A stretch of DNA of 64,000 nt from Escherichia coli (lineage in GTDB: Bacteria; Pseudomonadota; Gammaproteobacteria; Enterobacterales; Enterobacteriaceae). Made by a program: the position numbers and the translations under genes. Below are positions 43,432-62,930 of this stretch, one piece after another; within the stretch, counting starts at the first letter, position 1, and each line of letters begins with the position of its first letter. Location of the stretch: NCBI RefSeq assembly GCF_044324875.1, contig NZ_CP172185.1; one strand, written 5' to 3'. The notes beneath the pieces were generated by a model that saw nothing but the letters and a program-made list of their open reading frames with translations, had not been told where the DNA came from and did no database searches.

Positions 43432-44868
43432 ATGGCGCAGTCGAAACTCTATCCAGTTGTGATGGCAGGTGGCTCCGGTAGCCGCTTATGGCCGCTTTCC
43501 CGCGTACTTTACCCCAAGCAGTTTTTATGCCTGAAAGGCGATCTCACCATGCTGCAAACCACCATCTGCCGCCTGAACGGCGTGGAGTGCGAAAGCCCGG
43601 TGGTGATTTGCAATGAGCAGCACCGCTTTATTGTCGCGGAACAGCTGCGTCAACTGAACAAACTTACCGAGAACATTATTCTCGAACCGGCAGGGCGAAA
43701 CACGGCACCTGCCATTGCGCTGGCGGCGCTGGCGGCAACACGTCATAGCCCGGAGAGCGACCCGTTAATGCTGGTATTGGCGGCGGATCATGTGATTGCC
43801 GATGAAGACGCGTTCCGTGCCGCCGTGCGTAATGCCATGCCATATGCCGAAGCGGGCAAGCTGGTGACCTTCGGCATTGTGCCGGATCTACCAGAAACCG
43901 GTTATGGCTATATTCGTCGCGGTGAAGTATCTGCGGGTGAGCAGGATACGGTGGCCTTTGAAGTGGCGCAGTTTGTCGAAAAACCGAATCTGGAAACCGC
44001 TCAGGCCTATGTGGCAAGCGGCGAATATTACTGGAACAGCGGTATGTTCCTGTTCCGCGCCGGACGCTATCTCGAAGAACTGAAAAAATATCGCCCGGAT
44101 ATTCTCGACGCCTGTGAAAAAGCGATGAGCGCCATCGATCCGGATCTCGATTTTATTCGTGTGGATGAAGAAGCGTTTCTCGCCTGCCCGGAAGAGTCGG
44201 TGGATTACGCAGTCATGGAACGTACGGCAGATGCTGTTGTGGTGCCGATGGATGCGGGCTGGAGCGATGTCGGTTCCTGGTCCTCTTTATGGGAGATCAG
44301 CGCCCACACCGCCGAGGGCAACGTTTGCCACGGCGATGTGATTAATCACAAAACTGAAAACAGCTATGTGTATGCCGAATCTGGCCTGGTCACCACCGTC
44401 GGGGTGAAAGATTTGGTGGTAGTGCAGACCAAAGATGCGGTGCTGATTGCTGACCGTAACGCGGTGCAGGATGTGAAAAAAGTGGTCGAGCAGATCAAAG
44501 CCGATGGTCGCCATGAGCATCGGGTGCATCGCGAAGTGTATCGTCCGTGGGGCAAATATGACTCTATCGACGCGGGCGACCGCTACCAGGTGAAACGCAT
44601 CACCGTGAAACCGGGCGAAGGCTTGTCGGTACAGATGCACCATCACCGCGCGGAACACTGGGTAGTGGTCGCGGGAACGGCAAAAGTCACCATTGATGGT
44701 GATATCAAACTGCTTGGTGAAAACGAGTCCATTTATATTCCGCTGGGGGCGACGCATTGCCTGGAAAACCCGGGGAAAATTCCGCTCGATTTAATTGAAG
44801 TGCGCTCCGGCTCTTATCTCGAGGAGGATGATGTGGTGCGCTTCGCGGATCGCTACGGGCGGGTGTAA
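43432..44868 (+). CDS. cpsB: mannose-1-phosphate guanylyltransferase (colanic acid copy)
   Basis: 478-aa ORF with [13 protein letters not shown] nucleotidyltransferase motif and C-terminal cupin ([17 protein letters not shown]). Confidence 0.95.
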
Positions 44869-44995
<127 letters not shown>

Positions 44996-45060
44996 TAACG
45001 ACAAAAACAAAATTGGCCGTTTCGGTCAGGGCCAACTATTGCCTGAAAAAGGGTAACGAC

Positions 45061-46431
45061 ATGAAAAAATTAACCTGCTTTAAAGCCTATGATATTCGCG
45101 GGAAATTAGGCGAAGAACTGAATGAAGATATTGCCTGGCGTATTGGGCGTGCCTATGGCGAATTTCTCAAACCGAAAACCATTGTGTTAGGCGGTGATGT
45201 CCGCCTCACCAGCGAAATCTTAAAACTGGCGCTGGCAAAAGGTTTACAGGATGCGGGTGTCGATGTGCTGGATATTGGCATGTCCGGCACCGAAGAGATC
45301 TATTACGCCACGTTCCATCTCGGCGTGGATGGCGGCATCGAAGTCACTGCCAGCCATAATCCGATGGATTACAACGGCATGAAGCTGGTACGCGAAGGGG
45401 CTCGCCCGATCAGCGGCGATACCGGACTGCGCGACGTCCAGCGTCTGGCAGAAGCCAATGACTTCCCTCCTGTCGATGAAACCAAACGCGGTCGCTATCA
45501 GCAAATCAATCTGCGTGATGCTTACGTTGATCACCTGTTCGGTTATATCAACGTCAAAAACCTCACGCCGCTCAAGCTGGTGATTAACTCCGGGAACGGC
45601 GCAGCGGGTCCGGTAGTTGACGCCATTGAAGCCCGCTTTAAAGCCCTCGGCGCACCTGTGGAATTGATCAAAGTGCACAACACGCCGGACGGCAATTTCC
45701 CCAACGGTATTCCTAACCCGCTGCTGCCGGAATGCCGCGACGACACCCGCAATGAGGTCATCAAACACGGCGCGGATATGGGCATTGCCTTTGATGGCGA
45801 TTTTGACCGCTGCTTCCTGTTTGACGAAAAAGGGCAGTTTATCGAGGGCTACTACATTGTCGGCCTGCTGGCAGAAGCGTTCCTCGAAAAAAATCCTGGC
45901 GCGAAGATCATCCACGATCCACGTCTCTCCTGGAACACCGTTGATGTGGTGACTGCTGCTGGCGGCACGCCGGTAATGTCGAAAACCGGACACGCCTTTA
46001 TTAAAGAACGTATGCGCAAGGAAGACGCCATCTATGGTGGCGAAATGAGCGCTCACCATTACTTCCGCGATTTCGCTTACTGCGACAGCGGCATGATCCC
46101 GTGGCTGCTGGTCGCCGAACTGGTGTGCCTGAAAGGAAAAACGCTGGGCGAACTGGTGCGCGACCGGATGGCAGCGTTTCCGGCAAGCGGTGAGATCAAC
46201 AGCAAACTGGCGCACCCCGTTGAGGCGATTAACCGCGTCGAACAGCATTTTAGCCGCGAGGCGCTGGCGGTGGATCGCACCGATGGCATCAGCATGACCT
46301 TTGCCGACTGGCGCTTTAATCTGCGCTCCTCCAACACCGAACCGGTGGTGCGGTTGAATGTGGAATCGCGCGGTGATGTGCCGCTGATGGAAGCGCGAAC
46401 GCGAACTCTGCTGGCGTTGCTGAACGAGTAA
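45061..46431 (+). CDS. cpsG: phosphomannomutase (colanic acid copy)
   Basis: ATG at 45061 gives [29 protein letters not shown] (456 aa) with phosphohexomutase active-site Ser motif (TASHNP). The upstream extension was rejected. Confidence 0.93.
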
Positions 46432-46485
46432 TGTCGGATCTTCCCTTACCCCACTGCGGGTAAGGGGCTAATAACAGGAACAACG

Positions 46486-47880
46486 ATGACAAATCTAAAA
46501 AAGCGCGAGCGAGCGAAAACCAATGCATCGTTAATCTCTATGGTGCAACGCTTTTCAGATATCACCATCATGTTTGCCGGACTATGGCTGGTTTGCGAAG
46601 TGAGCGGCCTGTCATTCCTCTACATGCACCTGTTGGTGGCGCTGATTACGCTGGTGGTGTTCCAGATGCTGGGTGGCATCACCGATTTTTATCGCTCATG
46701 GCGAGGTGTTCGGGCAGCGACAGAATTTGCCCTGCTGCTACAAAACTGGACCTTAAGCGTGATTTTCAGCGCCGGACTGGTGGCGTTCAACAATGATTTC
46801 GACACGCAACTGAAAATCTGGCTGGCGTGGTATGGGCTGACCAGCATCGGACTGGTGGTTTGCCGTTCATGTATTCGCATTGGGGCGGGCTGGCTGCGTA
46901 ATCATGGCTATAACAAGCGTATGGTCGCCGTAGCGGGGGATTTAGCCGCCGGACAAATGCTGATGGAGAGCTTCCGTAATCAGCCGTGGTTAGGGTTTGA
47001 AGTGGTGGGCGTATACCACGACCCAAAACCGGGCGGCGTTTCTAACGACTGGGCGGGCAATCTGCAACAGCTGGTAGAGGATGCAAAAGCGGGCAAGATT
47101 CATAACGTCTATATCGCGATGCAGATGTGCGACGGCGCGCGCGTGAAAAAACTGGTCCATCAACTGGCGGACACCACCTGTTCGGTGCTGCTGATCCCCG
47201 ATGTCTTTACCTTCAACATTCTCCATTCCCGTATCGAAGAGATGAACGGCGTACCGGTGGTGCCGCTTTACGACACACCGCTTTCCGGGGTTAACCGCCT
47301 GCTCAAACGTGCGGAAGACATTGTGCTGGCGACGCTTATCCTGCTGCTGATCTCCCCGGTGCTGTGTTGCATTGCGCTGGCGGTGAAACTCAGTTCACCT
47401 GGGCCGGTTATTTTCCGCCAGACTCGCTACGGCATGGACGGCAAACCGATCAAAGTGTGGAAGTTCCGTTCCATGAAAGTGATGGAGAACGACAAAGTGG
47501 TGACTCAGGCGACGCAGAACGATCCGCGCGTCACCAAAGTGGGGAATTTTCTACGCCGCACCTCGCTGGATGAATTGCCGCAGTTTATTAATGTGCTGAC
47601 CGGGGGGATGTCGATTGTCGGTCCGCGTCCGCATGCGGTGGCGCATAACGAACAGTATCGCCAGCTCATTGAAGGCTACATGCTGCGCCATAAGGTGAAA
47701 CCGGGCATTACCGGCTGGGCGCAGATTAACGGCTGGCGCGGCGAAACCGACACGCTGGAGAAAATGGAAAAACGCGTCGAGTTCGACCTTGAGTACATCC
47801 GCGAATGGAGCGTCTGGTTCGATATCAAAATCGTTTTCCTGACGGTGTTCAAGGGCTTCGTTAACAAAGCGGCATATTGA
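46486..47880 (+). CDS. wcaJ: undecaprenyl-phosphate glucose-1-phosphate transferase WcaJ
   Basis: 464-aa ORF with N-terminal TM segments and C-terminal bacterial sugar transferase domain (SIVGPRPH). Confidence 0.93.
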   Translation: MTNLKKRERAKTNASLISMVQRFSDITIMFAGLWLVCEVSGLSFLYMHLLVALITLVVFQMLGGITDFYRSWRGVRAATEFALLLQNWTLSVIFSAGLVAFNNDFDTQLKIWLAWYGLTSIGLVVCRSCIRIGAGWLRNHGYNKRMVAVAGDLAAGQMLMESFRNQPWLGFEVVGVYHDPKPGGVSNDWAGNLQQLVEDAKAGKIHNVYIAMQMCDGARVKKLVHQLADTTCSVLLIPDVFTFNILHSRIEEMNGVPVVPLYDTPLSGVNRLLKRAEDIVLATLILLLISPVLCCIALAVKLSSPGPVIFRQTRYGMDGKPIKVWKFRSMKVMENDKVVTQATQNDPRVTKVGNFLRRTSLDELPQFINVLTGGMSIVGPRPHAVAHNEQYRQLIEGYMLRHKVKPGITGWAQINGWRGETDTLEKMEKRVEFDLEYIREWSVWFDIKIVFLTVFKGFVNKAAY

Positions 47881-47881
47881 T

Positions 47882-49360
47882 ATGAGCTTACGTGAAAAAA
47901 CCATCAGCGGCGCGAAGTGGTCGGCGATTGCCACGGTGATCATCATCGGCCTCGGGTTGGTGCAGATGACCGTGCTGGCGCGGATTATCGACAACCACCA
48001 GTTCGGCCTGCTGACTGTGTCGCTGGTGATCATCGCGCTGGCAGATACGCTTTCTGACTTCGGTATCGCTAACTCCATTATTCAGCGAAAAGAAATCAGC
48101 CACCTTGAACTCACCACGCTGTACTGGCTGAACGTTGGGCTGGGGCTTGTGGTGTGCGTGGCGGTGTTTTTGTTGAGTGATCTCATTGGTGACATGCTGA
48201 ATAACCCGGACCTGGCACCCTTGATTAAAACATTGTCGCTGGCGTTTGTGGTGATCCCCCACGGGCAACAGTTCCGCGCGTTGATGCAGAAGGAGCTGGA
48301 GTTCAACAAAATCGGCATGATCGAAACCAGCGCGGTGCTGGCGGGCTTCACTTTTACGGTGGTTAGCGCCCATTTCTGGCCGCTGGCGATGACCGCGATC
48401 CTCGGTTATCTGGTCAATAGTGCGGTAAGAACGCTGCTGTTTGGCTACTTTGGCCGCAAAATTTATCGCCCCGGTCTGCATTTCTCGCTGGCGTCGGTGG
48501 CACCGAACTTACGCTTTGGTGCCTGGCTGACGGCGGACAGCATCATCAACTATCTCAACACCAACCTTTCAACGCTGGTGCTGGCGCGTATTCTCGGCGC
48601 GAGTGTGGCAGGGGGGTACAACCTGGCGTACAACGTGGCCGTTGTGCCGCCGATGAAACTGAACCCCATCATCACCCGCGTGTTGTTTCCGGCGTTTGCC
48701 AAAATTCAGGACGACACCGAAAAGCTGCGCGTCAACTTCTACAAGCTGCTGTCGGTGGTGGGGATTATCAACTTTCCGGCGCTGCTCGGGCTGATGGTGG
48801 TGTCAAATAACTTTGTACCGCTGGTCTTTGGTGAGAAGTGGAACAGCATTATTCCGGTGCTGCAATTGCTGTGTGTGGTGGGGCTGCTGCGCTCAGTGGG
48901 GAACCCGATTGGTTCGCTGCTGATGGCGAAAGCGCGGGTCGATATCAGCTTTAAATTCAACGTATTCAAAACCTTTCTGTTTATTCCGGCGATTGTTATT
49001 GGTGGGCAGATGGCGGGCGCAATCGGCGTCACGCTTGGCTTCCTGCTGGTGCAGATTATCAACACCATTCTGAGCTATTTCGTGATGATTAAACCGGTGC
49101 TCGGTTCCAGTTATCGCCAGTACATCCTGAGTTTGTGGCTGCCGTTTTATCTCTCGCTGCCGACGCTGGTGGTTAGTTCTGCGCTGGGCATTGTGCTGAA
49201 AGGGCAACTGGCGCTGGGGATGCTGTTGGCGGTGCAAATAGCCGCGGGCGTGCTGGCGTTTGTGGTGATGATTGTGCTGTCGCGCCATTCGCTGGTGGTG
49301 GAAGTGAAGCGTCAGTTTTGTCGCAGCGAAAAAATGAAAATGCTTTTACGGGCGGGGTGA
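47882..49360 (+). CDS. wzxC: colanic acid repeat-unit flippase WzxC
   Basis: 492-aa polytopic MOP-family membrane protein; position in the cluster. Confidence 0.93.
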   Translation: MSLREKTISGAKWSAIATVIIIGLGLVQMTVLARIIDNHQFGLLTVSLVIIALADTLSDFGIANSIIQRKEISHLELTTLYWLNVGLGLVVCVAVFLLSDLIGDMLNNPDLAPLIKTLSLAFVVIPHGQQFRALMQKELEFNKIGMIETSAVLAGFTFTVVSAHFWPLAMTAILGYLVNSAVRTLLFGYFGRKIYRPGLHFSLASVAPNLRFGAWLTADSIINYLNTNLSTLVLARILGASVAGGYNLAYNVAVVPPMKLNPIITRVLFPAFAKIQDDTEKLRVNFYKLLSVVGIINFPALLGLMVVSNNFVPLVFGEKWNSIIPVLQLLCVVGLLRSVGNPIGSLLMAKARVDISFKFNVFKTFLFIPAIVIGGQMAGAIGVTLGFLLVQIINTILSYFVMIKPVLGSSYRQYILSLWLPFYLSLPTLVVSSALGIVLKGQLALGMLLAVQIAAGVLAFVVMIVLSRHSLVVEVKRQFCRSEKMKMLLRAG

Positions 49361-49387
49361 ATGGTTGTTTTCGGTTCCGACAACGGT

Positions 49388-49672
49388 TGCCGGATGCGGC
49401 GTGAACGCCTTATCCGTCCTACGGCTCTGTGCTCGGGTCTTGTAGGCCTGATAAGACGCGCCAGCGTCGCATCAGGCACTAAATGCCGGATGCGGCGTAA
49501 AACGCCTTATCCATCCTACGGTTCTGTGCTCGGGACCTGTAGGCCTGATAAGACGCGTCAGCGTCGCATCAGGCACTGAATGCTGGATGCGGCGTGAACG
49601 CCTTATCCGGCCTACGGTTCTGTGCTCGGGTCTTGTAGGCCTGATAAGACGCGCCAGCGTCGCATCAGGCAA
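49388..49672. repeat. BIME cluster: three tandem ~95-bp units of paired REP elements between wzxC and wcaK
   Basis: Three near-identical copies of gccggatgcggcgtgaacgccttatccg.cctacgg.tctgtgctcggg.cttgtaggcctgataagacgcg.cagcgtcgcatcaggca. Confidence 0.85.
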
Positions 49673-49731
49673 AAAACGGCAACGAACACAACAAACACAG
49701 CCTCACCTGGCATCAAATTTATGAGGAAAAA

Positions 49732-51012
49732 ATGAAATTACTTATTCTGGGCAACCACACTTGCGGCAATCGTGGCGACAGCGCCATCTTGCGCGGCTTA
49801 CTTGATGCCATCAACATCCTCAATCCACATGCCGAAGTGGACGTGATGAGCCGCTATCCTGTCAGTTCTTCCTGGCTGCTCAACCGCCCGGTAATGGGCG
49901 ATCCGCTGTTCCTGCAAATGAAACAACACAACAGCGCGGCGGGCGTTGTCGGGCGCGTTAAAAAAGTCCTCCGTCGCCGCTACCAGCATCAGGTATTGCT
50001 CTCACGCGTCACCGACACTGGCAAGCTGCGTAATATCGCCATCGCCCAGGGATTCACTGACTTCGTGCGCCTGCTGTCAGGTTACGACGCCATTATTCAG
50101 GTCGGCGGATCGTTTTTTGTCGATCTCTACGGCGTGCCGCAGTTTGAACATGCGCTTTGCACATTTATGGCGAAAAAGCCGCTGTTTATGATTGGTCACA
50201 GCGTCGGCCCCTTCCAGGATGAGCAATTTAACCAACTGGCGAACTACGTTTTCGGTCACTGTGACGCGCTGATCCTGCGCGAGTCGGTTAGCCTCGATCT
50301 AATGAAACGCAGCAATATCACCACTGCAAAAGTGGAACATGGCGTCGATACCGCGTGGCTGGTCGATCACCACACAGAAGATTTCACCGCCAGCTATGCC
50401 GTCCAACACTGGCTGGACGTTGCCGCACAACAGAAAACGGTAGCAATTACCTTGCGCGAACTGGTACCGTTCGACAAACGTCTCGGCACCACTCAACAAG
50501 CGTATGAAAAAGCCTTTGCCGGGGTGGTCAATCGCATTCTCGACGAAGGATATCAGGTGATTGCGCTCTCCACCTGTACGGGTATCGACAGCTATAACAA
50601 AGACGACCGCATGGTGGCGCTCAATCTGCGCCAGCATATCAGCGATCCTGCCCGTTACCACGTAGTGATGGATGAACTCAACGATCTGGAAATGGGCAAA
50701 ATTCTCGGTGCCTGTGAACTCACCGTCGGTACGCGCCTGCACTCCGCCATTATCTCAATGAACTTTGCCACTCCGGCGATTGCCATCAACTATGAACATA
50801 AATCCGCCGGGATTATGCAACAGCTGGGACTGCCAGAGATGGCGATTGATATCCGTCATTTACTGGACGGCAGCCTGCAAGCGATGGTTGCGGATACCTT
50901 AGGCCAACTTCCGGCGCTGAACGCACGACTTAACGAAGCTGTCAGTCGTGAGCGTCAGACAGGAATGCAGATGGTGCAATCTGTGCTTGAGCGCATCGGG
51001 GAGGTGAAATGA
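49732..51012 (+). CDS. wcaK: colanic acid pyruvyl transferase WcaK
   Basis: 426-aa ORF beginning MKLLILGNHTCGNRGDSAIL; position in the cluster. Confidence 0.92.
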   Translation: MKLLILGNHTCGNRGDSAILRGLLDAINILNPHAEVDVMSRYPVSSSWLLNRPVMGDPLFLQMKQHNSAAGVVGRVKKVLRRRYQHQVLLSRVTDTGKLRNIAIAQGFTDFVRLLSGYDAIIQVGGSFFVDLYGVPQFEHALCTFMAKKPLFMIGHSVGPFQDEQFNQLANYVFGHCDALILRESVSLDLMKRSNITTAKVEHGVDTAWLVDHHTEDFTASYAVQHWLDVAAQQKTVAITLRELVPFDKRLGTTQQAYEKAFAGVVNRILDEGYQVIALSTCTGIDSYNKDDRMVALNLRQHISDPARYHVVMDELNDLEMGKILGACELTVGTRLHSAIISMNFATPAIAINYEHKSAGIMQQLGLPEMAIDIRHLLDGSLQAMVADTLGQLPALNARLNEAVSRERQTGMQMVQSVLERIGEVK

Positions 51013-52229
51013 AGGTCGGCTTCTTTTTACTGAAATTTCCGCTGTCGTCGGAAACCTTCGTCCTCAATCAAATTACCGCGTTTATTGATATGGGCTTTGA
51101 AGTGGAGATTGTCGCGCTGCAAAAAGGTGACACACAAAACACCCACGCGGCATGGACGAAATACAACCTTGCCGCAAGAACCCGCTGGTTACAGGACGAA
51201 CCTACGGGCAAAGTGGCGAAGCTGCGCCACCGTGCCAGCCAGACCTTACGCGGCATTTATCGTAAAAATACCTGGCAGGCGCTCAACCTCAAACGCTATG
51301 GTGCCGAGTCGCGGAACCTGATTTTGTCTGCCATTTGCGGCCAGGTCGCAACACCGTTTCATGCCGATGTCTTTATCGCTCATTTTGGTCCGGCAGGGGT
51401 AACCGCAGCAAAACTACGCGAACTGGGTGTCATTCGCGGCAAAATTGCCACTATCTTCCACGGCATTGATATCTCCAGTCGGGAAGTGCTCAACCACTAC
51501 ACTCCCGAATATCAGCAACTGTTCCGCCGTGGCGACCTGATGTTACCGATAAGCGATCTGTGGGCCGGAAGGCTGCAAAAAATGGGCTGTCCGAGGGAAA
51601 AAATCGCCGTATCGCGTATGGGCGTGGACATGACGCGCTTTAGCCCGCGCCCGGTGAAAGCGCCCGCAACGCCGCTGGAAATCATTTCCGTCGCACGCTT
51701 AACCGAGAAAAAAGGCCTGCATGTGGCGATTGAAGCCTGCCGTCAGTTGAAAGAGCAGGGCGTGGCATTTCGCTATCGCATCCTCGGCATTGGCCCGTGG
51801 GAACGACGCCTGCGCACCCTCATCGAACAATATCAACTGGAAGATGTGGTGGAGATGCCGGGCTTTAAACCGAGCCATGAAGTGAAAGCGATGCTCGACG
51901 ACGCGGATATCTTCCTGTTGCCATCGGTAACGGGCGCGGATGGCGATATGGAAGGCATTCCGGTCGCGCTGATGGAAGCGATGGCGGTCGGCATTCCGGT
52001 GGTTTCTACTCTGCATAGCGGAATACCGGAACTGGTCGAGGCCGATAAATCCGGCTGGCTGGTGCCTGAGAACGATGCTCGCGCACTGGCGCAACGACTG
52101 GCGGCGTTTAGCCAACTGGACACCGACGAACTGGCTCCGGTCGTCAAACGAGCGCGCGAAAAAGTCGAACACGATTTTAACCAGCAGGTGATTAATCGAG
52201 AACTCGCCAGCTTGCTGCAAGCTTTATAG
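51009..52229 (+). CDS. wcaL: colanic acid GT4 glycosyltransferase WcaL
   Basis: 406-aa ORF; overlaps the wcaK stop; GT4 EX7E-type region. Confidence 0.92.
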
Positions 52230-52239
52230 AGGAGAACGT

Positions 52240-53634
52240 ATGCCATTTAAAAAACTCTCCCGACGCACCTTCCTGACGGCAAGCTCCGCGCTTGCCTTCC
52301 TCCATACCCCTTTCGCTCGCGCACTTCCCGACCAACAGAGCGTTAACATTAACGACTACAACCCTCACGACTGGATCGCCTCATTTAAACAAGCCTTCAG
52401 CGAAGGACAAACAGTCGTCGTGCCTGCCGGATTCGTTTGTGACAATATCAACACCGGCATCTTCATCCCTCCCGGCAAAACGTTACACATCCTTGGAAGC
52501 CTGCGCGGCAACGGCAGAGGGCGATTTGTCTTACAGGACGGCAGCCAGGTGACAGGGGAGGAGGGCGGCAGTATGCATAACATCACCCTGGATGTGCGTG
52601 GTTCTGACTGCACCATCAAAGGGCTGGCGATGAGCGGTTTCGGCCCGGTAACGCAGATTTATATCGGCGGCAAAAACAAACGGGTTATGCGTAACCTGAC
52701 CATCGATAACCTGACCATTAGCCACGCTAATTACGCCATCTTACGTCAGGGATTTCATAACCAGATTATCGGTGCCAACATCACCAATTGTAAGTTCAGC
52801 GACTTACAGGGGGACGCCATTGAATGGAACGTGGCGATTAACGACAGTGATATTTTGATCTCCGACCACATCATCGAGCGCATCAACTGTACCAACGGCA
52901 AAATCAACTGGGGAATCGGCATAGGCCTTGCGGGGAGTACTTATGATAATAACTACCCGGAAGACCAGGCAGTGAAAAACTTTGTCGTGGCGAATATCAC
53001 GGGATCGGATTGTCGACAACTGATCCATGTTGAAAATGGTAAACATTTTGTTATTCGTAATATCAAAGCCCGCAATATCACGCCGGATTTCAGTAAGAAA
53101 GCAGGTATTGATAACGCCACGGTCGCTATTTACGGTTGTGACAATTTCGTGATTGATAATATTGAAATGATTAATAGCGCCGGGATGTTAATCGGTTATG
53201 GGGTAATTAAAGGCAAATATCTCTCGATACCGCAAAATTTCCGAGTGAATAATATTCAGCTGGATAACACCCACCTTGCTTACAAATTGCGCGGTATCCA
53301 AATCTCTGCCGGGAATGCTGTCTCCTTTGTGGCACTGACTAACATTGAGATGAAGCGTGCCTCGTTGGAGTTACACAACAAACCGCAACATCTTTTTATA
53401 CGAAATATCAAAGTGATGCAGGAATCCTCTGTTGGACCCGCATTGAGCATGAACTTCGACATGCGCAAAGACGTTCGCGGCGTCTTTATGGCGAAAAAAG
53501 AAACACTGCTGTCTCTTGCAAATGTTCATGCGGTGAATGAAAGAGGGCAAAGCTCCGTCGATATCGACAGGGTTAATCACCATATTGTTAATGTGGAAAA
53601 GATTAACTTTAGATTGCCAGAACGGAGAGAGTAG
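52240..53634 (+). CDS. wcaM: colanic acid biosynthesis protein WcaM (secreted, beta-helix-like)
   Basis: 464-aa ORF with Tat/Sec-like N-terminus [21 protein letters not shown]; position in the cluster. Confidence 0.9.
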
Positions 53635-53808
53635 ATTTGCGACCATTCCTGGAAAAATGGAGCCATACTTAGGAACAATGCTACTGCAATCCACAACGAA
53701 GCGGCGTAACATCACAAGTAATTCAGTAATCAATTCAGGGTAATTGATGCTGGCGAAAAAAATCGAACAAGCTATAATTCAGCAACCATTTTACAGGTGG
53801 ATGAAATA

Positions 53809-54702
53809 ATGACGAATTTAAAAGCAGTTATTCCTGTAGCGGGTCTTGGGATGCATATGTTGCCTGCCACTAAGGCGATTCCCAAAGAGATGCTACCGAT
53901 CGTCGACAAGCCAATGATTCAGTACATTGTTGACGAGATTGTGGCTGCAGGGATCAAAGAAATCCTCCTGGTAACTCACGCGTCCAAGAACGCGGTCGAA
54001 AACCACTTCGACACCTCTTATGAATTAGAATCTCTCCTTGAACAGCGCGTGAAGCGTCAACTACTGGCGGAAGTGCAGTCCATCTGTCCGCCGGGCGTGA
54101 CCATTATGAACGTGCGTCAGGGCGAACCTTTAGGTTTGGGCCACTCCATTTTATGTGCACGACCTGCCATTGGTGACAACCCATTTGTCGTGGTACTGCC
54201 AGACGTTGTTATCGATGACGCCAGCGCCGATCCGCTACGCTATAACCTTGCTGCCATGATTGCGCGCTTCAACGAAACGGGCCGCAGCCAGGTGCTGGCA
54301 AAACGTATGCCGGGTGACCTCTCTGAATACTCCGTCATTCAGACCAAAGAACCACTGGATCGTGAAGGTAAAGTCAGCCGCATCGTCGAATTTATCGAAA
54401 AACCGGATCAGCCGCAGACGCTGGACTCAGACATCATGGCCGTTGGTCGCTATGTGCTTTCTGCCGATATTTGGCCGGAACTTGAACGCACGCAACCTGG
54501 TGCATGGGGGCGTATTCAGCTGACTGATGCTATTGCCGAACTGGCGAAAAAACAGTCCGTTGATGCCATGCTGATGACCGGCGACAGCTACGACTGCGGT
54601 AAAAAAATGGGCTATATGCAGGCGTTTGTGAAGTATGGACTGCGCAACCTGAAGGAAGGGCCAAAGTTCCGTAAGAGCATTGAGAAGTTGCTCGGGGAAT
54701 AG
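53809..54702 (+). CDS. galF: UTP-glucose-1-phosphate uridylyltransferase regulatory subunit GalF
   Basis: ATG at 53809 gives [39 protein letters not shown] (297 aa). The upstream GTG extension was rejected. Confidence 0.95.
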
Positions 54703-54962
54703 ATCCCAAGCCAATGTAACAATAATTTAGATAAATAGCGGCAGCTAACATCCCGGCGTCTATGCTTTAAACAAAGGAATGTTACTGTCGTTTTTCTTTT
54801 TAAAACAAAGAATAACAACGAGTTAACCTACTAAGTTTAATCTATTTTTTGTTGGATTTATCCTTGTTTCTGACAGCATTTGGTAAGACAATTGGCGTTT
54901 GAATTTAAGATAGCTTTGCGATAGCTAGCGGGGCGGGGTACATCTTTGGCATTTTGCTAGTG

Positions 54963-54996
54963 CACTGGTAGCTGTTAAGCCAGGGGCGGTAGCGTG
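54963..54996 (+). promoter_or_regulatory. JUMPstart element with ops site upstream of the O-antigen gene cluster
   Basis: cactggtagctgttaagccaggggcggtagcgtg contains the ops core GGCGGTAGCGTG (54985..54996), in the galF to O-antigen intergenic region. Confidence 0.85.
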
Positions 54997-55095
54997 GTAA
55001 GATTGTGTTTATATGATGCGTTCTCAAAATAAGAAATAATAATCCTGACTATTTTTATACTATTGATAATATCTGAAATAAACTTAAGAGCAAAC

Positions 55096-56100
55096 ATGAA
55101 AGTAATTGTAAATAATTTTTTTGATGGTATTTTGAAAAGAGGAATACCGATCTATACTTCTGAACTTGTGCAAAAGTTAAGAGACAATAATGTTCAGGTT
55201 ATTTATGTTGCATGTCCAAAAGCATTCCATAAGCTGCCTTCATGGTTTCTGAATGTTCTTTTTATAATAGTAGAGCAGCTTTTAATACCAATTATGGGTA
55301 TATTTTATAGAACTAAGTATAATATATATCCCTATAATAGTAGTTCCATCATTGACTTGTTATTAGGTAAGGCAATTGTTATAATTCATGACTTCATTAG
55401 TCTTAAGAAAAATAAACGAAATCTTGCTGCCATTTATGTGAAAGTCTGTATTTATTTTTCATCTTTTTTAGCAAAGAAAGTAATATTTATTTCTCAAAGC
55501 ACTCAGCGAGTATCTAAGAGAATATCGCTATTTAAGTGTATAGAATCTATCCTGCTCCCAAATCCATTTTTCTCATTTGAGAAAATTGCTAATGTTACCG
55601 AAATAAAAGATCTTGGATATTTACTTCTAGTTTCAGGTTTAGGGGATAATAAGGATCTAGGCACAGCTCTGGACTATTATTTTTCAATCCCAAGGGAAGA
55701 AAGAATACCATTAAAAATATTAGGTTGTGGGAATGGTATTAGCAAGGTTAACGACTTAATTGATGGGCGGGATACAGATAAAGAAATTGAAATTATTGGT
55801 TTTGTTTCTTTAGAGGAAGTCGTCAAACTATATTGTAATTCTAAAATTGTTTGGGCTCATTCGCTTGCCGAGGGGTATGGAAGGACTTTAGCTGAAGCAA
55901 AACTCACATGCAAAAATGTTATATGCACACGGATCTCTGCTTTCCGCGAACAAAAGGATTCGAATATTTTCTTTTATACTTACTATTCTGAGTATTATGA
56001 AGTCTATTCATACTTGGTAGATAATTCACCCAGTGTCGAAAGGAAAGCTCTGCATGAACATATTTTATTTGAAAATGAATTGAGAAAGATTTATGAGTAA
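55096..56100 (+). CDS. O-antigen glycosyltransferase, probable GT4 family
   Basis: ATG at 55096 (MKVIVNNFFDG..., preceded by TAAGAG) chosen over the ORF-track start at 55063. EX7E-like region AHSLAEGYGRTLAEA. Very AT-rich codon usage. Confidence 0.75.
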   Translation: MKVIVNNFFDGILKRGIPIYTSELVQKLRDNNVQVIYVACPKAFHKLPSWFLNVLFIIVEQLLIPIMGIFYRTKYNIYPYNSSSIIDLLLGKAIVIIHDFISLKKNKRNLAAIYVKVCIYFSSFLAKKVIFISQSTQRVSKRISLFKCIESILLPNPFFSFEKIANVTEIKDLGYLLLVSGLGDNKDLGTALDYYFSIPREERIPLKILGCGNGISKVNDLIDGRDTDKEIEIIGFVSLEEVVKLYCNSKIVWAHSLAEGYGRTLAEAKLTCKNVICTRISAFREQKDSNIFFYTYYSEYYEVYSYLVDNSPSVERKALHEHILFENELRKIYE

Positions 56101-57295
56101 TATTGATATAAATAAGAAACAGATATTAGTTTTGACTCCACGGTTCCCGTTTCCTGTCATTGGTGGGGATCGATTACGTATCTATAAGATCTGTAAAGAA
56201 CTGTCTAAGCATTATGATCTTACGTTGCTGAGTCTGTGTGATAAACGCGAAGAGCTCAACTATGAATATGATCGTGAAGTTTTTAGTAGTGTTCACAGAG
56301 TATATCTTTCAAAGAAAAAATCTATTTTAAATGTCATATTCTCTTTGTTTTCAAATACTCCCCTACAGATTGGGTATTATAAATCTAAAGAATTTGAAGA
56401 TAAACTTAAGCAGTTATTACCTGAACATTCTGCAACTCTTTCACATTTGATAAGGGTTGGTGATTATGTGAAAGAGAATAAAGATATAAATTTTTTAGAG
56501 ATGACCGATGCCATTTCACTTAATTATAAACGAGTAAAGGAAAAAGCATCTTTATTGAGTTTAAAAACATTTGTATATTCTTTTGAACAAAAAAGACTCG
56601 AACGATATGAGCGAACTATAAATAACAAGTTCAGCTTGACTACTTTGGTATCACAGGTTGACTCCGATTATTTATATCCAGACCGTCCGAATAATGTATT
56701 AGTCTGTGGAAATGGTGTTGATGCCGTTAGCTTACCTTTTTCAGAACGAAAAATAGCTAAAGATAAAAAGATAACCCTTGTATTTATAGGTAATTTATAT
56801 TCTTTGCAAAATATGGATGGTGTGAGATGGTTCACCAAGGAAGTTTTACCATTTCTTAACAAGCATGGTAATTTTGAATTTAAGGTCATCGGACGTATTA
56901 CAGATAAAGATAAGAGTTGGTTAGAAAGCCAGCCTGGCGTTGTTGTCACAGGTGAAGTTGATAGCATAACTTATGCAGCAGCTGATGGGCATATTGGTGT
57001 ATGTCCTATTAGATTAGGGGCAGGTATCCAAAATAAGGTACTTGAATATATGGCGTTGGGATTACCTTGTATCTCTTCTACTGTAGGCTTTGAAGGCTTG
57101 GGAGCAGAGGAGGGTAAGGAGATTTATGTTGCCAATACAAAAGAAGAATATTTACGTGTATTAAATTATTTTATAACAAATCTGGATAAATATACCGAAA
57201 CAGCATTAGTTGCGAAAAAGTTTATCGGTGAGAATTTTTCATGGGAAGCTAAATTGAGCCCATATATCCAGAAAATTAAGGAGTCTGTTAAATAA
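56093..57295 (+). CDS. O-antigen glycosyltransferase, GT4 family
   Basis: 400-aa ORF; start overlaps the previous gene. GT4 C-terminal region ([33 protein letters not shown]). Confidence 0.8.
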
Positions 57296-57296
57296 A

Positions 57297-58712
57297 ATGA
57301 TTATCCCAATTATTATGGCCGGTGGTTCTGGTACTCGCTTATGGCCTCTTTCGCGTTCGTTATACCCGAAACAATTTTTATCATTGATTAATGAAAATAG
57401 TTTGCTCCAGGAAACGTTGAAGAGACTTGATGGATTAAATTGTTTGCCTCCTGTCATTGTTAGCAATAATGAGCATAGATTTATTGTTGCTGAACAATTG
57501 CGACAGTTCGGTGTGGATGACTTCCAGATTATTCTAGAACCTGTAGGTAGAAATACTGCGCCCGCCGTTGCGCTGGCTGCTCTAAAGTCTCTAGAACTCC
57601 ATGGCGATCATCATATGCTGGTTCTTGCTGCTGACCATGCTATTCAGGATATTGAAGCCTTCCATGCAGCTGTTTTAGCTGCAGAACAAGAGTCCGTTGA
57701 CAATAAGTTAGTGACTTTTGGCATCGTCCCGACCAAACCTGAAACTGGGTATGGCTATATTAAAAAGGGCGAACAAGTTAAAAACTCTGTATTTAAAGTA
57801 AATTCTTTCGTCGAAAAACCTGATTTAGAAACGGCTAAAAATTATCTCGAACAAAAATGCTATTTGTGGAATAGTGGTATGTTCATGTTCAAGGCGAGCG
57901 TATATTTAGATGAATTGAAAAAATTTCGCCCTGATATTTTAGCAGCGTGTAAAGAGTCGCTTTCCAGTGCTAGTACTGATCTAGATTTTATCAGATTAAA
58001 TTCTGATGTCTTTGCAGAATGTCCCGATGAGTCAATTGATTATGCGGTAATGGAAAAAACTCAGGATTGTGTAGTTATTCCACTTGATGCTGACTGGAGT
58101 GACATCGGTTCATGGACATCACTTTGGGAAATATCAGAGAAAGATGAACATGAAAACGTATCGCATGGCGATGTAATTAACTATAACAGCAGGAACAACT
58201 ACATTTACTCTGAAGGTTCACTGATCAGCACTGTAGGAGTTAATAACCTTATTATAGTTCAAACTAAAGATGCGCTCCTGGTAGCACAGCAAGACAACGT
58301 ACAAGACATAAAGAAGATTGTCGAAATTCTTAAAAAGCAAAAACGTAGCGAACATATATCCCATCGCGAAGTCTATCGTCCTTGGGGACGTTATGATTCT
58401 GTAGAACGTGGCGACCGTTATCAGGTAAAGCGTATTACCGTTAAGCCTGGTGAATGTCTCTCAACACAAATGCATCATCATCGAGCTGAGCATTGGGTGG
58501 TTGTCGCTGGTACTGCAAAGGTGACTTGCGGCGAACGCACTTTTTTCGTCACTGAAAATGAGTCAACTTTCATACCAATTGGCACAGTTCATACCTTGGA
58601 AAATCCAGGAAAGATACCATTAGAAGTAATTGAGATTCAGTCGGGTGTATATCTAGGTGATGATGATATTGTGCGCCTAAGTGATAAATATGGTCGTGTT
58701 GAGGATAAATAA
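57297..58712 (+). CDS. manC: mannose-1-phosphate guanylyltransferase (O-antigen copy)
   Basis: 471-aa ORF; N-terminus [28 protein letters not shown] and C-terminal cupin nearly identical in motif to cpsB, but in AT-rich codon usage. Confidence 0.9.
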
Positions 58713-58716
58713 TTAT

Positions 58717-60138
58717 ATGAATATTACCAATGATGTAATTAAAAATAGCGGAATTGCATTTGGTACAAGTGGTGCTCGTGGATTAGTGAAAGATTTTACA
58801 CCCAACGTGTGTGCTGCATTCACTTATGCTTTTATCGATGTAATGATGAAGGATTTTTCTTTTAAAGAGGTTGCGCTCGCAATAGATAATCGCCCAAGCA
58901 GCTATGCTATGGCACAAGCTTGCGCAGCAGCATTGTTGGAATGTAGTATTAAACCTATTTACTACGGTGTAATTCCAACTCCAGCTTTGGCAAATCAAGC
59001 GATTGCCGATGGGATTCCTGCAATAATGGTTACTGGAAGTCATATTCCATTTGATAGAAATGGTTTGAAATTCTATCGTCCAGACGGGGAAATTTCAAAA
59101 GAAAATGAGAACAGCATTATACATGCTGAAAAAGAGTATCCTGATGTAACTGTATTGCCAGAATTACAATGTTCAAAGCGTGCCGCTGATACTTATATCG
59201 AGAGAAACACTTCAATTTTTTCAAATATATTTAAAGGTAAACGTATCGGGATTTATGAACATTCAAGTGCGGGACGGGATCTTTATTCAGAAATATTCAG
59301 TAAGCTTGGTGCTGAAGTTGTAAGTATTGGTAGAAGTGATGAGTTTGTGCCTATTGATACTGAAGCAGTATCAAAAGAAGATGAAGAAAAAGCTTTACAC
59401 TGGTCATCTGAGTATGACCTCGATATGATTTTTTCTACCGATGGTGATGGCGATCGTCCTTTGGTTGCTGACGAAAATGGCGTTTGGTTACGGGGTGATA
59501 TATTAGGACTATTTTGCTCAAAGGCAATGAATATTGAAGCGGTAGCTGTACCTGTAAGTTGTAATACGGTTATTCAGACTTGCGGGTGGTTTAATCATGT
59601 AACGCTGACTAAAATTGGTTCACCATACGTCATTTCAGCGTTTGATTCTCTGAATAATAGTTTTGATAGGGTTGCAGGGTTTGAGGCTAACGGTGGGTAT
59701 CTTTTAGGTAGCGATGTAAATTATAACAGCGGTATGATTAAAGCGCTTCCAACAAGAGATGCTGTTTTGCCTGCTTTAATGGTACTGGCACTGGCTATAA
59801 AAAATAATGTGACTATTTCAAAACTCTTGGCGGAGTTGCCACCACGATTTACCTACTCAAATAGAGTTCAAAATTTTGCAACAAGCAAAAGTAAAAGCAT
59901 TATCGCGTCAGCTCAAGAAAATCCTCAAGAATTTATCGAAAGAATAGGCTTTGTCGATCTTCATGTACAATCGGTGGATACAATTGACGGGTTAAGATTG
60001 ACACTAAGTGATGGTTCAATAATCCATTTGCGACCGTCAGGCAACGCACCTGAATTGCGATGCTATGCAGAAGCAGATAACATAATAAAAGCTGAAAAAT
60101 TAGTGTTAGAAGTTTTGCATAAAGTTACTCTTTTGTAA
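58717..60138 (+). CDS. manB: phosphomannomutase-type phosphohexomutase (O-antigen copy)
   Basis: ATG at 58717 gives [29 protein letters not shown]...; active-site region [17 protein letters not shown]. The ORF-track start at 58681 is a GTG inside manC. Gene symbol assigned by function and cluster context, not by match to a specific known locus. Confidence 0.8.
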
Positions 60139-60321
60139 AAAAATATAAACTTTTTTCTACTCTTGAGCGGTTTGTCATTTAACCGCTCAGTAATAGATTG
60201 TTTATAAATTGTTTATATTTAGCATTGGTGTTTTTATTTGCGTTCATCCCGAATAAGAGATTGTAAAATTAACTGTTTCTTATTTTTCAAATGAGTTACT
60301 TCACTAGTAAAGCTAATTACT

Positions 60322-61653
60322 ATGCATAAGCAATATTATTCATTATTGTGCAATAAAATACAGTTTAAACATCTGGCTATATATTTTTCTGTATTTCTTT
60401 CACTATCCTCATGTTTCTTGTGGGGAGGGGCGGATACATTTGTATCGCAAGTGTATATTGATATTTTAGCCACTATATCTACAGCGCTATTAGTTGTTTT
60501 GATGTTCTATTATTATATTAATAGAGTTCGCTATTTATCACTAACCTTACTTTTTGCATTCGTTTTTTCTTTGATTATTGGTTTGCCATCGATTTATCTT
60601 TACTATTTTAAAAACGCAAATCATGGGTTTGAAATAATTTGTATCTGGGGGATGTTGATCAATTCCATCCTTTACTTGCAAACAACAGAGACTGTCATAA
60701 AAGAAGAAAAAAGATATTTAACTAGTTTATTTTATATTTTGTTTTCTATTGTTGCACTGTGTCAATTATACAAAATATTAATTTATCTTATGTTTATATT
60801 GAATTCAGGAGAAGGGCATTTAGCAATTTATACTGAAAGCGAAGAATTGCTATCCCAAGTTCCATTTTTTATTCGTGCTATTAGTGGTTTTGCAGTTGTA
60901 ATGTCATTGTCCACTTTTTATTTTAAAACACCGACCTACATTAAAGTTATTGCATTTGTTTTACTTGCATCTGATTTAGCTATTGGAATACGTAATAAGT
61001 TTTTCTTTTCAGTGATTTGTATTTTTATACTATATATGTACTCTAATGAGTATAGAGTAAGAAATTTATTTAAGCAACTCTCAAAACCAATATTTCTCAT
61101 CGCCGGTTTTTTATGCTTCTCGATGGTATCGTATTTCCGTGAAGGGTACCAAATCGATTTTATGATTTATATTGGCATTGTTTTAGATTCGCTATCCTCT
61201 ACTCTTGGGGGGATGCAGAATTTGTTTGATATGCAATCATCAGGATGGGATCAACTTCATCCCGCTGTGGTATTCACACAAGTATTACCGCTAAGCGGTC
61301 TTGGTTTTCTTGATGATCAACAAATCGCAAAAGATTTTTCAATAATTGTTTTAGGTGATGTATCCTCTGGTATTGCGTTGTCATCTTCAGGATTGTTAGA
61401 GTCATCGTTGCTGAGTCTAAACTTGGGAGTGATTATTTATTTACTGTATTTATCAGGGGTGATGCTTTTTATTAAATGGGGACTAAATAATCAACGGATA
61501 ATAATAAACTTTGTTGCCATCTCCATGATATCTGGATTTTTTTATGCTGTTCGTGGTGAACTGATTTTGCCATTGGCTTTTCTTCTAAAATCATTGCCGA
61601 TTGTTCTTATATCTCCATTACTTGTTAAAAATAAAATTTATCATGGTCAGTAA
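60322..61653 (+). CDS. wzy: probable O-antigen polymerase (Wzy-type polytopic membrane protein)
   Basis: 443-aa strongly hydrophobic, very AT-rich ORF with about 10-12 predicted TM segments and no MOP-family N-terminal motif. Assigned by exclusion and cluster context. Confidence 0.6.
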   Translation: MHKQYYSLLCNKIQFKHLAIYFSVFLSLSSCFLWGGADTFVSQVYIDILATISTALLVVLMFYYYINRVRYLSLTLLFAFVFSLIIGLPSIYLYYFKNANHGFEIICIWGMLINSILYLQTTETVIKEEKRYLTSLFYILFSIVALCQLYKILIYLMFILNSGEGHLAIYTESEELLSQVPFFIRAISGFAVVMSLSTFYFKTPTYIKVIAFVLLASDLAIGIRNKFFFSVICIFILYMYSNEYRVRNLFKQLSKPIFLIAGFLCFSMVSYFREGYQIDFMIYIGIVLDSLSSTLGGMQNLFDMQSSGWDQLHPAVVFTQVLPLSGLGFLDDQQIAKDFSIIVLGDVSSGIALSSSGLLESSLLSLNLGVIIYLLYLSGVMLFIKWGLNNQRIIINFVAISMISGFFYAVRGELILPLAFLLKSLPIVLISPLLVKNKIYHGQ

Positions 61654-61694
61654 GTGGTTTATTTTTCGACCAGGATCTCACCAGTAGGCATGAC

Positions 61695-62930
61695 ATGATC
61701 AAAGAAATTTTCTCCGATGGCATTTTTTCGCTATTTAATAAAATATGTTACTTCGGTTTTAAAACACTTGCAATAATTCTGATTACTCGTTCCTTAGGAG
61801 AAGATGTAGGCGGAGAGTTCATTTTTTTAGTTGGTTTTCTCGAAGTCCTTCGGGTGGTTACTGATTTTGGTGTGGATCTGTTTGTTATAAAAAAATATAA
61901 TGATTCTACAGATAAAATAAAACTATTAAATGTAACGTTTGCACAAAAAATTCTTTCTGGAGTAATTGTTTTACTACTGTTTTGTTTGTATTCTTTTGTT
62001 CAGGGTTATCAATATAATGTCTATATTCCTATTGTGTTAGCCTTACCTGTTGCTTTATTTTTTAATTTCTCAAATAGCTATTTTCAATCTCTCAATTCCA
62101 ATAAATCTCTCACGTTTCCGATCGCAATTGCATCTATTGCAACGTGTACGATCTTCGCTATTCAGTATTTTTTAAACGTTAAATTTAACGCATGGGATTA
62201 CCTGTGTGTTGAACTATTATTCGTATCGCTGGTTACACTAAAACTATTCGTTAGTGTCAAGTTTAGGTTTATTAGAACGTCAGCTTTTGATGTGCTAATG
62301 TCAATTCTTTCTTTATATAAATATACATTAAGTATAGGTCTTACAGCTGTTGTTGTAATTATTTATAGCCGTATAGATAATTTTTATCTCAAGACATTTG
62401 CCCCAGGGGATCTTGCAGCATATGGCCAGATATTTAGGATGGTTGATCCACTGGTTATGGTTTCTTCTGTATTTTCTACAGTTGCCTATGCAAGATTTTG
62501 CCGAATTAACTTACAAGAAAAAAATGCTTTTACTAAGGTGTTTCAGTTCCTGTTATGTATTGTGGCATATGGCGTGCTGAGTTCATTAGTTTATTTCTTT
62601 ATAATAAAATACCTGGGTCATTTTGTATTGATTTCTAATGTTAATAATGATTTCTTGATAATGATGTTCTTGATTGTTGCATGTGTGAAATGTATCAATG
62701 GTGGTACAACTGCAATAATTCAGTCACAGGGGTTTTATAAAGTGGGTTTGTATGTTTCGTATGTTTGCATTTTGACATCGATACCAACTATGTATTTCTT
62801 AATAATGAAGTACGGTGTTAAAGGTGCTGCTATGACGATTCTGCTTGTAGAGTGTATTAGTTTCATATTACTTCTCTGCAGCTTTTTTATGATAAAAAAG
62901 ATGCGTCCTAAAAAAACATTCGAAATGTAA
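61695..62930 (+). CDS. wzx: probable O-antigen flippase (Wzx, MOP family)
   Basis: 411-aa polytopic membrane ORF with N-terminal FNKICYFGFKTLAIILITRSLGEDVGGEF resembling the Wzx/polysaccharide-biosynthesis-protein N-terminal motif. Confidence 0.65.
   Translation: MIKEIFSDGIFSLFNKICYFGFKTLAIILITRSLGEDVGGEFIFLVGFLEVLRVVTDFGVDLFVIKKYNDSTDKIKLLNVTFAQKILSGVIVLLLFCLYSFVQGYQYNVYIPIVLALPVALFFNFSNSYFQSLNSNKSLTFPIAIASIATCTIFAIQYFLNVKFNAWDYLCVELLFVSLVTLKLFVSVKFRFIRTSAFDVLMSILSLYKYTLSIGLTAVVVIIYSRIDNFYLKTFAPGDLAAYGQIFRMVDPLVMVSSVFSTVAYARFCRINLQEKNAFTKVFQFLLCIVAYGVLSSLVYFFIIKYLGHFVLISNVNNDFLIMMFLIVACVKCINGGTTAIIQSQGFYKVGLYVSYVCILTSIPTMYFLIMKYGVKGAAMTILLVECISFILLLCSFFMIKKMRPKKTFEM

Follow-up and report, generated by a model that had tools for sequence, protein, structure and literature searches.

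A strain-variable BIME-2 array of REP palindromes between wzxC and wcaK in the colanic acid operon of Escherichia coli

Among the small non-coding repeats of E. coli, clusters of REP palindromes form the most abundant family. The cluster lying between the colanic acid genes wzxC and wcaK raises the question of what such repeats do inside an operon that has to be read through. We addressed this question in a stretch of E. coli DNA of 64,000 nucleotides (hereafter, the window), in which an initial annotation had placed three tandem BIME units, each a pair of REPs, at 49388-49672.

Tandem Repeats Finder delimits the array at 49388..49671 (period 97, 2.9 copies, 91% matches, score 496), and a repeat search of the window returned three copies spaced 97 and 96 bp apart. 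The span first proposed was thus one base too long at its right end, while the threefold succession of a Y-type REP and an inverted Z2-type REP was borne out. The array lies wholly inside the 371-bp gap between the two genes and is therefore extragenic. The REP head motif GCCKGATGCGRCG, with at most one mismatch, occurs 16 times in the 64-kb window versus 0.54 times expected from shuffles, a number that none of 100 shuffles reached; six of the 16 heads belong to the array, where they alternate between the plus and minus strands. BIME-2 elements are defined by z2 and y REPs, a short S linker, s, l and r flanks, and multiple tandem copies whose number varies among strains (PMC3333891; PMC1187871). 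The array is a BIME-2, in which Y-type REP palindromes alternate in tandem with inverted Z2-type ones: it is built of Y/Z2 units in alternating orientation with S and head-to-head linkers, it is extragenic, and the number of its tandem copies is strain-variable. Units of a non-REP kind are excluded by the sequence.

On the plus strand, which is the mRNA sense, each unit reads Y-type REP, 19-nt linker, inverted Z2-type REP and 5-nt linker. The Y-type REPs measure 35-36 nt (TGCCGGATGCGGCGTGAACGCCTTATCCGNCCTAC) and have GCCGGATGCGGCG as their head, the inverted Z2-type REPs measure 37 nt (GTAGGCCTGATAAGACGCGCCAGCGTCGCATCAGGCA) and have GCCTGATGCGACG, the tail-to-tail S linker of 19 nt is bounded by CCTAC and GTAGG, and the 5-nt head-to-head linker is CTAAA or CTGAA. 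Units of 96 bp, with the Y loop TGAAC, alternate with units of 97 bp, with the Y loop TAAAAC. Upstream of the array, wzxC (47882..49360, plus strand), encoding the colanic acid repeat-unit flippase, matches NCBIfam NF007773 over its full length with 829.6 bits, as a WzxC-type MOP flippase. Its stop codon TGA (49358..49360) is followed by a 27-nt spacer (49361..49387, plus strand) containing CGACAACG, an imperfect direct repeat of the CGGCAACG found just past the array. Unit 1 comprises a forward Y-type REP on the plus strand (49388..49422, TGCCGGATGCGGCGTGAACGCCTTATCCGTCCTAC; hairpin of -14.8 kcal/mol), the S linker GGCTCTGTGCTCGGGTCTT (49423..49441, plus strand), which is G-rich in the mRNA sense with a C/G ratio of 0.71, an inverted Z2-type REP on the minus strand (49442..49478; hairpin of -21.9 kcal/mol, z = -5.5) and the linker CTAAA (49479..49483). 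Unit 2 comprises a 36-nt Y-type REP with the TAAAAC loop variant (49484..49519, plus strand), the S linker GGTTCTGTGCTCGGGACCT (49520..49538, plus strand), an inverted Z2 REP (49539..49575, minus strand) and the linker CTGAA (49576..49580). Unit 3 comprises a Y-type REP with the head variant TGCTGG (49581..49615, plus strand), the S linker GGTTCTGTGCTCGGGTCTT (49616..49634, plus strand) and an inverted Z2 REP (49635..49671, minus strand). The array is separated from wcaK by a 60-nt A/C-rich, poorly structured spacer (49672..49731, plus strand), which is unpaired in the minimum free energy fold, has a C/G ratio of 1.67 and holds the wcaK Shine-Dalgarno sequence (GAGG, 7 nt, ATG). The wcaK gene (49732..51012, plus strand), encoding the colanic acid pyruvyl transferase, is a full-length match to the NCBIfam equivalog TIGR04006 with 933.4 bits.

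With CCTAC after each Y and GTAGG before each Z2, the REPs have the conserved GTAG/CTAC tetranucleotide at their foot, and the predicted hairpins have internal mismatches in the stem; foot and mismatch are both needed for the REP-associated transposase RayT/TnpA-REP, for which the REPs of the array would be putative substrates. The stems are indeed imperfect, as inverted repeats were recovered with a 6-nt seed and none with a 9-nt seed.

The array belongs to a long operon. A JUMPstart element with ops (GGCGGTAGCGTG) lies on the plus strand at 30455..30493 (Rfam RF01707, 57.3 bits), 179 nt upstream of wza, and marks the start of an operon that must read through the array. A second JUMPstart element, at 54958..54996, precedes the O-antigen genes. 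The junctions from wza to wcaM range from -26 to +54 nt, with three exceptions: wzc-wcaA measures 128 nt, cpsB-cpsG 192 nt and wzxC-wcaK 371 nt. REPs are present in all three of these gaps. The wzc-wcaA gap has one REP and an inverted half-REP (34436..34491, plus strand). The cpsB-cpsG group (44870..44971, plus strand) has a truncated Z2 half (44870..44882), a Y REP (44889..44923) and an inverted Z2 (44935..44971); the REP pair reported earlier at 44869..44995 is thus real, with a right end that was drawn generously. Liang and colleagues reportedly found in 2015 that a REP within about 15 nt of a stop codon acts on translation of the upstream gene. The first REP of the array starts 28 nt past the wzxC stop (49360 to 49388), a distance beyond that limit for an action on wzxC translation, and the cpsB-cpsG half-REP begins 2 nt after the cpsB stop codon (44866..44868).

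Within 49200..49900, we found neither a sigma-70-like promoter consensus nor an intrinsic terminator (a GC-rich hairpin with a U-run) on either strand; the last hairpin of the array is followed by an A-run, AAAAAAC. In K-12, after 60 min of colicin M, the log2 induction of the operon falls gradually from wza (7.12) through cpsG (5.15), wcaJ (4.82), wzxC (4.45), wcaK (4.45) and wcaL (3.63) to wcaM (2.71), and a step between wzxC and wcaK is absent (PMC3599342). Since wzxC and wcaK are co-induced in K-12, whose allele has two units, transcription reads through the array. The read-through claimed in the initial annotation is accordingly supported by the JUMPstart/ops element ahead of wza, by the tight junctions and by this equal induction. 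Equal fold changes are also compatible with a constant fractional loss, as a fold change is insensitive to an attenuator that removes a constant fraction. In uninduced K-12, the RNA-seq baseMean is 90.9 for wcaK versus 36.2 for wzxC (supplement of bioRxiv 10.64898/2026.03.23.713779), which is the opposite of an upstream bias, although the counts are so low that they can be given no weight.

The predicted fold of the 371-nt gap has an energy of -176.6 kcal/mol, as compared with -126.8 ± 5.4 for shuffled sequences (z = -9.2). Single Y and Z2 REPs reach -14.8 and -21.9 kcal/mol, respectively, and each unit on its own is predicted to form a single long hairpin by pairing of Y with Z2, with energies of -45.8 to -51.1 kcal/mol. 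Based on these observations, we consider it likely that the array is a mobile, near-neutral repeat that transcription passes through, with no more than a mild effect as a barrier to mRNA decay or as an attenuator. Transcription of the JUMPstart/ops-controlled wza-to-wcaM operon reads through the array, and in the mRNA the long Y:Z2 hairpin of each unit would have a predicted energy of about -46 to -51 kcal/mol. These hairpins could slow 3'-to-5' exonucleases and thereby protect the upstream wza..wzxC segment, and they could also cause some loss of the transcripts entering wcaKLM. The stabiliser and attenuator roles are both proposed by analogy with other REPs and with REP325. The net effect on expression is probably small, leaving the array close to neutral. 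A role as an exonuclease barrier is experimental for the malE-malF REPs, the classical example of REPs that stabilise mRNA and an intra-operon pair that, in what is cited of Newbury et al. 1987, impedes 3'-to-5' exonucleases; for the array of the window, the same role would follow from its likeness to that pair.

The array is a known kind of element at a known place. In K-12 MG1655, the corresponding element is REP144, located at 2118467..2118652 between wzxC and wcaK (supplement of bioRxiv 10.64898/2026.03.23.713779); REP144 is named only in that supplement, and the main text of the preprint mentions neither wzxC, wcaK nor RfaH. REP144 and the array of the window share the locus, the Y/Z2 units, the linkers and the orientation, and differ in size: REP144 has two units in a 275-bp gap, whereas the window has three in a 371-bp gap, with the extra 96-bp unit at the wzxC side. 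Additionally, in a study of REPs flanking the O157 O-antigen cluster, Iguchi 2011 placed REPs in the gaps wcaK-wzxC, cpsG-cpsB and wcaA-wzc, described indels that contain REPs and vary among strains, and noted a junction of similarity at wcaK-wzxC (PMC3158064), so that both the strain variation and the junction were already known. That study compared six strains; our analysis adds a range of zero to nine units, a clean example of the duplication mechanism, two deletions that end in REPs, the contrast in orientation with REP325 and a comparison across genera. By itself, the array is a textbook repeat of little consequence, and its presence is not surprising.

REP325 is a six-unit Y/Z2 BIME-2 in the yjdM-yjdN operon, and therefore intra-operon like the array of the window, which has three units. 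It is the source of naRNA4. The Y and Z2 REPs of unit 3 are identical to those of REP325 at 33 of 35 and 36 of 37 positions, respectively. REP325 stabilises the upstream yjdM mRNA, cuts the downstream yjdN about 8-fold and gives a ladder of hairpin-ended RNAs, and its effect is partly sensitive to bicyclomycin, i.e., Rho-dependent, with the full array only; genome-wide, tandem gene pairs separated by REPs skew to the upstream gene (bioRxiv 10.64898/2026.03.23.713779). The effects proposed in the initial annotation, on mRNA stability or through partial termination, are thus matched by those of this analogous BIME-2. Nevertheless, the two elements differ in several respects. The period of REP325 is 100 bp with an 11-nt head-to-head linker, versus 96/97 bp and 5 nt in the window. 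The naRNA4 matches of REP325 lie on the yjdM-yjdN sense strand, whereas the array of the window is oriented the opposite way relative to transcription; due to this opposite orientation, the tail-to-tail linkers, which are unpaired, are rich in G in the wca mRNA (C/G 0.57-0.71) and strongly C-rich in the REP325 transcript (C/G 9). No JUMPstart match was found in the 6-kb yjdMN locus scanned. The results obtained with REP325 may therefore not carry over to an array of opposite orientation, and this orientation, the G-rich linkers and the JUMPstart/ops control suggest that attenuation would be weaker here than at REP325.

To measure unit number within E. coli, two 600-bp flanks were joined into one query, and the span of each match was converted into the length of the insert. 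The query matched 4706 of 5426 complete E. coli genomes, and units were counted in 60 of these 4706 genomes, sampled evenly along the ranked matches. The sample contained alleles with no unit (10/60), one (9/60), two (15/60), three (5/60), four (6/60), five (5/60) and six units (3/60), together with 59-bp remnants (2/60), a different sequence at the junction (3/60, at 94% coverage) and disrupted loci (2/60). Representative alleles, which were read directly and split at the Y heads, confirmed the counts based on span. One unit is found in O157:H7, two in K-12 and six in CFT073. A nine-unit allele was found among the 60 closest alleles, in a uropathogenic isolate. The comparison across strains proposed in the initial annotation thus upholds its claim of a variable copy number, with zero to six units in the 60 sampled genomes and nine in this isolate, and the array is a length-polymorphic marker of zero to nine units in steps of about 96 bp.

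The nine-unit array reads as units 1-2-3-4-1-2-3-4-5 of a five-unit allele with identical flanks, although both lengths hinge on the quality of the assemblies. Units 1-4 are thus duplicated exactly, which is direct evidence that tandem duplication occurs in register, and unit number would accordingly shift by in-register unequal recombination or by slippage between units. The two isolates come from the same series of a UTI study. Among the shorter alleles, one has a 71-bp gap with no REP and retains a single copy, CGGCAAT, of the 8-bp sequence that flanks occupied alleles as an imperfect direct repeat; on sequence grounds, this single copy would fit either a microhomology deletion or a target duplication. 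In another allele, a deletion inside one unit has left a Y REP alone. In a third (e.g., NCTC86), the REPs are replaced by a boxC-like element, and the ribosome-binding site is GAGGTCAT, as in other genera.

We then considered WcaK-encoding loci from 80 species representatives, in 77 of which the wzxC-wcaK gap was measurable. The median gap is 31 bp, and 48 of the 77 species have gaps of at most 40 bp, in which the wcaK ribosome-binding site is the sole feature. REP-like sequences are present at the junction in 7-9 species, the carriers being E. coli, E. whittamii, Citrobacter amalonaticus and its relatives, and Salmonella enterica subsp. arizonae; among the larger gaps, those of 10-12 species contain boxC-like elements and that of one species an ERIC element. 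As most of these species have so short a junction, the array is a lineage-specific insertion that was not ancestral to the colanic acid operon, and it invaded a junction only 14-40 bp long in most Enterobacteriaceae. The wzxC-wcaK junction tolerates insertions. Neighbouring junctions overlap or are tightly coupled, whereas wcaK is provided with a ribosome-binding site of its own.

As DNA, the array is a substrate for rearrangement, through recombination junctions, insertion of the REP-specific element IS1397 and REP-to-REP deletions. In strain BH100N, an IS1397-family element lies in the loop of the third Z2 REP, and the sequence runs on into hisIE/hisI, a deletion that has removed everything from wcaK to the O-antigen region. 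A second deletion, in Escherichia sp. MOD1-EC7003, has joined the REP that follows wzc to the BIME directly before wcaK, and wcaA-wzxC is gone; here, the assignment to wzc is based on a YEYEYK motif in the ORF that terminates immediately before the REP and on a near-identical sequence after the stop, which matches the wzc-wcaA REP of the window. Deletions that inactivate the synthesis of colanic acid or O-antigen thus end in this array and in other REPs of the operon. Additionally, a comparison of two of the alleles (L003 and L005) shows 2 differences in 600 sites to the left and 21 in about 696 sites to the right, with a breakpoint between -35 and +118 bp of the array, and the window and a further allele (L002) give a similar pattern. 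The discordant left and right histories of L003 and L005 agree with the wcaK-wzxC junction of Iguchi 2011.

These observations allow the tentative reading, possible in our view but with the balance against it, that the main significance of the array is that of a recombination hotspot, at which exchanges of the neighbouring O-antigen and colanic acid region are bounded. The change in similarity at the wcaK-wzxC gap (PMC3158064), the switch of L003/L005 and, alike, of the window and L002 at the array, and the two deletions ending in these REPs argue for it. However, between the window and strain 135, which share a 100% identical O-antigen segment of the O17/O44/O73/O77/O106 family, a divergent 3-kb patch (49135..52142) spans the array and crosses it rather than ending there. 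Moreover, about ten alleles were compared, and breakpoints cluster all along the region flanking the O-antigen genes anyway.

Within the reading that we prefer, of a near-neutral repeat that is read through, an attenuating effect would at most be mild. A stronger version, which seems rather unlikely to us, holds that the array is a tuned attenuator: a copy-number-dependent, partly Rho-dependent terminator would set wcaK, wcaL and wcaM relative to the upstream genes, with the lineage-specific unit numbers (0-9) as a heritable dial of expression. The roughly 8-fold reduction of the gene downstream of the six-unit REP325, the Rho dependence of that element with its full array and not with 2-4 hairpins, the highly polymorphic and lineage-typical unit number and the drop in induction from wcaK to wcaM downstream of the array are all in line with such a dial. 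Nevertheless, the orientation opposite to REP325 makes the G-rich linkers a poor rut-like sequence, and a single in vitro Rho-binding peak is listed for REP144, in antisense orientation to wzxC (supplement of bioRxiv 10.64898/2026.03.23.713779). JUMPstart/ops, with which the operon begins, is described as RfaH antitermination, the two-unit allele of K-12 has equal induction on both sides, and alleles with no unit are as common as stated above. Alleles of different length form a natural series, which could be used to test the effect of BIME-2 unit number on downstream expression in a long operon controlled by antitermination.

A doubtful alternative places the function in the DNA, where the array would be a binding and cleavage site of DNA gyrase that relieves the positive supercoiling ahead of RNA polymerase in a strongly inducible operon of ~23 kb, and it would not need to have any effect on the RNA. 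BIME-2 elements are reported gyrase targets according to work cited in PMC3158064, and REPs occupy all three large gaps of this long operon. However, the zero-unit alleles and most other genera manage without the element at this junction, where boxC or ERIC sequences occur in other genera and, in the material examined, come without a link to gyrase.

The colonisation of the junction by three repeat families in different genera could reflect selection and not neutrality. An extension of this idea, which we regard as improbable, is that the junction is a selected landing site for structured RNA, reached independently by REP/BIME, boxC-like and ERIC repeats, and that in E. coli the zero to nine units constitute a fast-mutating heritable dial for wcaK/wcaL/wcaM expression relative to the other genes of the operon. 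If so, unit number would set the pyruvylation or the completion of colanic acid repeat units.

It is very improbable that the array encodes naRNA4-like nucleoid-associated RNAs that would condense the chromosome with HU. Two matches to Rfam naRNA4 (RF02564) on the minus strand, at 49445..49516 (68.3 bits) and 49542..49612 (74.0 bits), exceed the gathering score of 59.5, and each spans a head-to-head Y/Z2 junction. Nevertheless, both are antisense to the operon, as is the naRNA4 match of the K-12 wzxC-wcaK element, and they lie in the interval in which a promoter consensus is absent from both strands. Their scores are far below those of the REP325 units (95-111 bits), and the model recognises a generic Y/Z2 junction, since it also matches the phnE-phnD gap. 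Moreover, REP325/naRNA4 has been reported without measurable nucleoid compaction (bioRxiv 10.64898/2026.03.23.713779). A naRNA4 small-RNA gene in the array was therefore not accepted; the matches are genuine, but they lie on the antisense strand and are common to Y/Z2 junctions in general.

Small proteins from the ORFs inside the array (49361..49579, plus strand, 72 aa; 49472..49672, minus strand, 66 aa) were rejected as practically implausible: both ORFs come up in the program-made ORF list, but NCBIfam gave no match for either of them, most alleles have GTT in place of the ATG at 49361, and the unit number and the 96/97-bp alternation disrupt any frame. The array warns annotators against calling ORFs or small RNAs within it.

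The unit number of the BIME-2 between wzxC and wcaK, which in the window comprises three units of a Y REP and an inverted Z2 REP each (49388..49671), differs between two E. coli strains from a single recurrent-UTI study series in Mexico City. UPEC-774U/190308 carries nine units and UPEC-455U/190220 carries five, with identical flanks on both sides. The nine-unit array corresponds to the five-unit array with units 1-4 duplicated exactly (386 bp), although an assembly error within the repeats is possible.

The array also lies inside a stretch that sets the window apart from E. coli strain 135. The two sequences show no differences over 45000..49134 and only six over 52143..64000, a region that includes the O17/O44/O73/O77/O106-family O-antigen cluster, whereas the intervening 3-kb patch (49135..52142) contains approximately 95 differences and one extra unit. 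The divergent patch, which covers the 3′ end of wzxC, the BIME, wcaK and wcaL, looks like a recombination tract.

Two further loci show larger rearrangements ending in the array. In E. coli BH100N (NZ_CP025703.1), an IS1397-family IS3 element has inserted into the third Z2 REP of the array, within its loop (locus 3573..5420), and hisIE comes next; since the sequence runs on into hisIE, the deletion takes in wcaK, the O-antigen cluster, gnd, ugd and wzz. In Escherichia sp. MOD1-EC7003, the REP downstream of the wzc stop codon is joined to a three-unit BIME immediately 5′ of wcaK (locus 1000..1500), an apparent REP-to-REP deletion that would have removed approximately 15 kb, from wcaA through wzxC. 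The wzxC/wcaK flanks gave no megablast match in 720 of the 5426 complete E. coli genomes. The one locus inspected, a weak partial-match record (NZ_AP045822.1), contains a decayed cluster with a frameshifted wzc, an IS3-family element at the wzc-wcaA gap, and wzxC and wcaK reduced to fragments.

An alternative allele of the wzxC-wcaK junction is present in E. coli SCU-108, where a boxC-like element, CCCTCACCCTAACCCTCTCCCCAGGGGGCGAGGGG, replaces the BIME in a 161-bp junction and the ribosome-binding site, GAGGTCAT, resembles that of other genera; judged by its span, NCTC86 carries this type of allele too. Among the 77 Enterobacteriaceae species with a measurable gap, the junction is 40 bp or shorter in 48, and REP-like, boxC-like and ERIC elements have invaded it independently in different genera.

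In the cpsB-cpsG gap, a truncated Z2 half-REP (within 44866..44882) starts 2 nt after the cpsB stop codon TAA (44866..44868) and is able to pair with the head of the following Y REP. Liang et al. are said to have described, in 2015, an influence of REPs this near a stop codon on the translation of the upstream gene. Just past the REPs of this gap and immediately 5′ of the cpsG start (45061), the algC RNA motif (Rfam RF02929) was matched on the plus strand at 45007..45056 with 78.2 bits (gathering score, 33.8); K-12 gives the same match.

JUMPstart/ops elements were located on the plus strand upstream of wza in the colanic acid operon (30455..30493) and past galF, upstream of the O-antigen genes (54958..54996). 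In K-12, an in vitro Rho-binding peak obtained with NusG (2118651..2118749, plus strand; bioRxiv 10.64898/2026.03.23.713779, supplement) overlaps the wzxC-proximal edge of REP144, the two-unit counterpart of the array, and lies antisense to the operon.

Elsewhere in the window, three tandem copies of SIB RNA (RF00113; 14613..15418, minus strand, 139-150 bits) sit within a tandem repeat of 2.8 copies of 328 bp (14488..15397). The K-12 equivalent has two copies, sibA and sibB; thus, the window's strain may possess one more Sib/Ibs type I toxin-antitoxin module than K-12.
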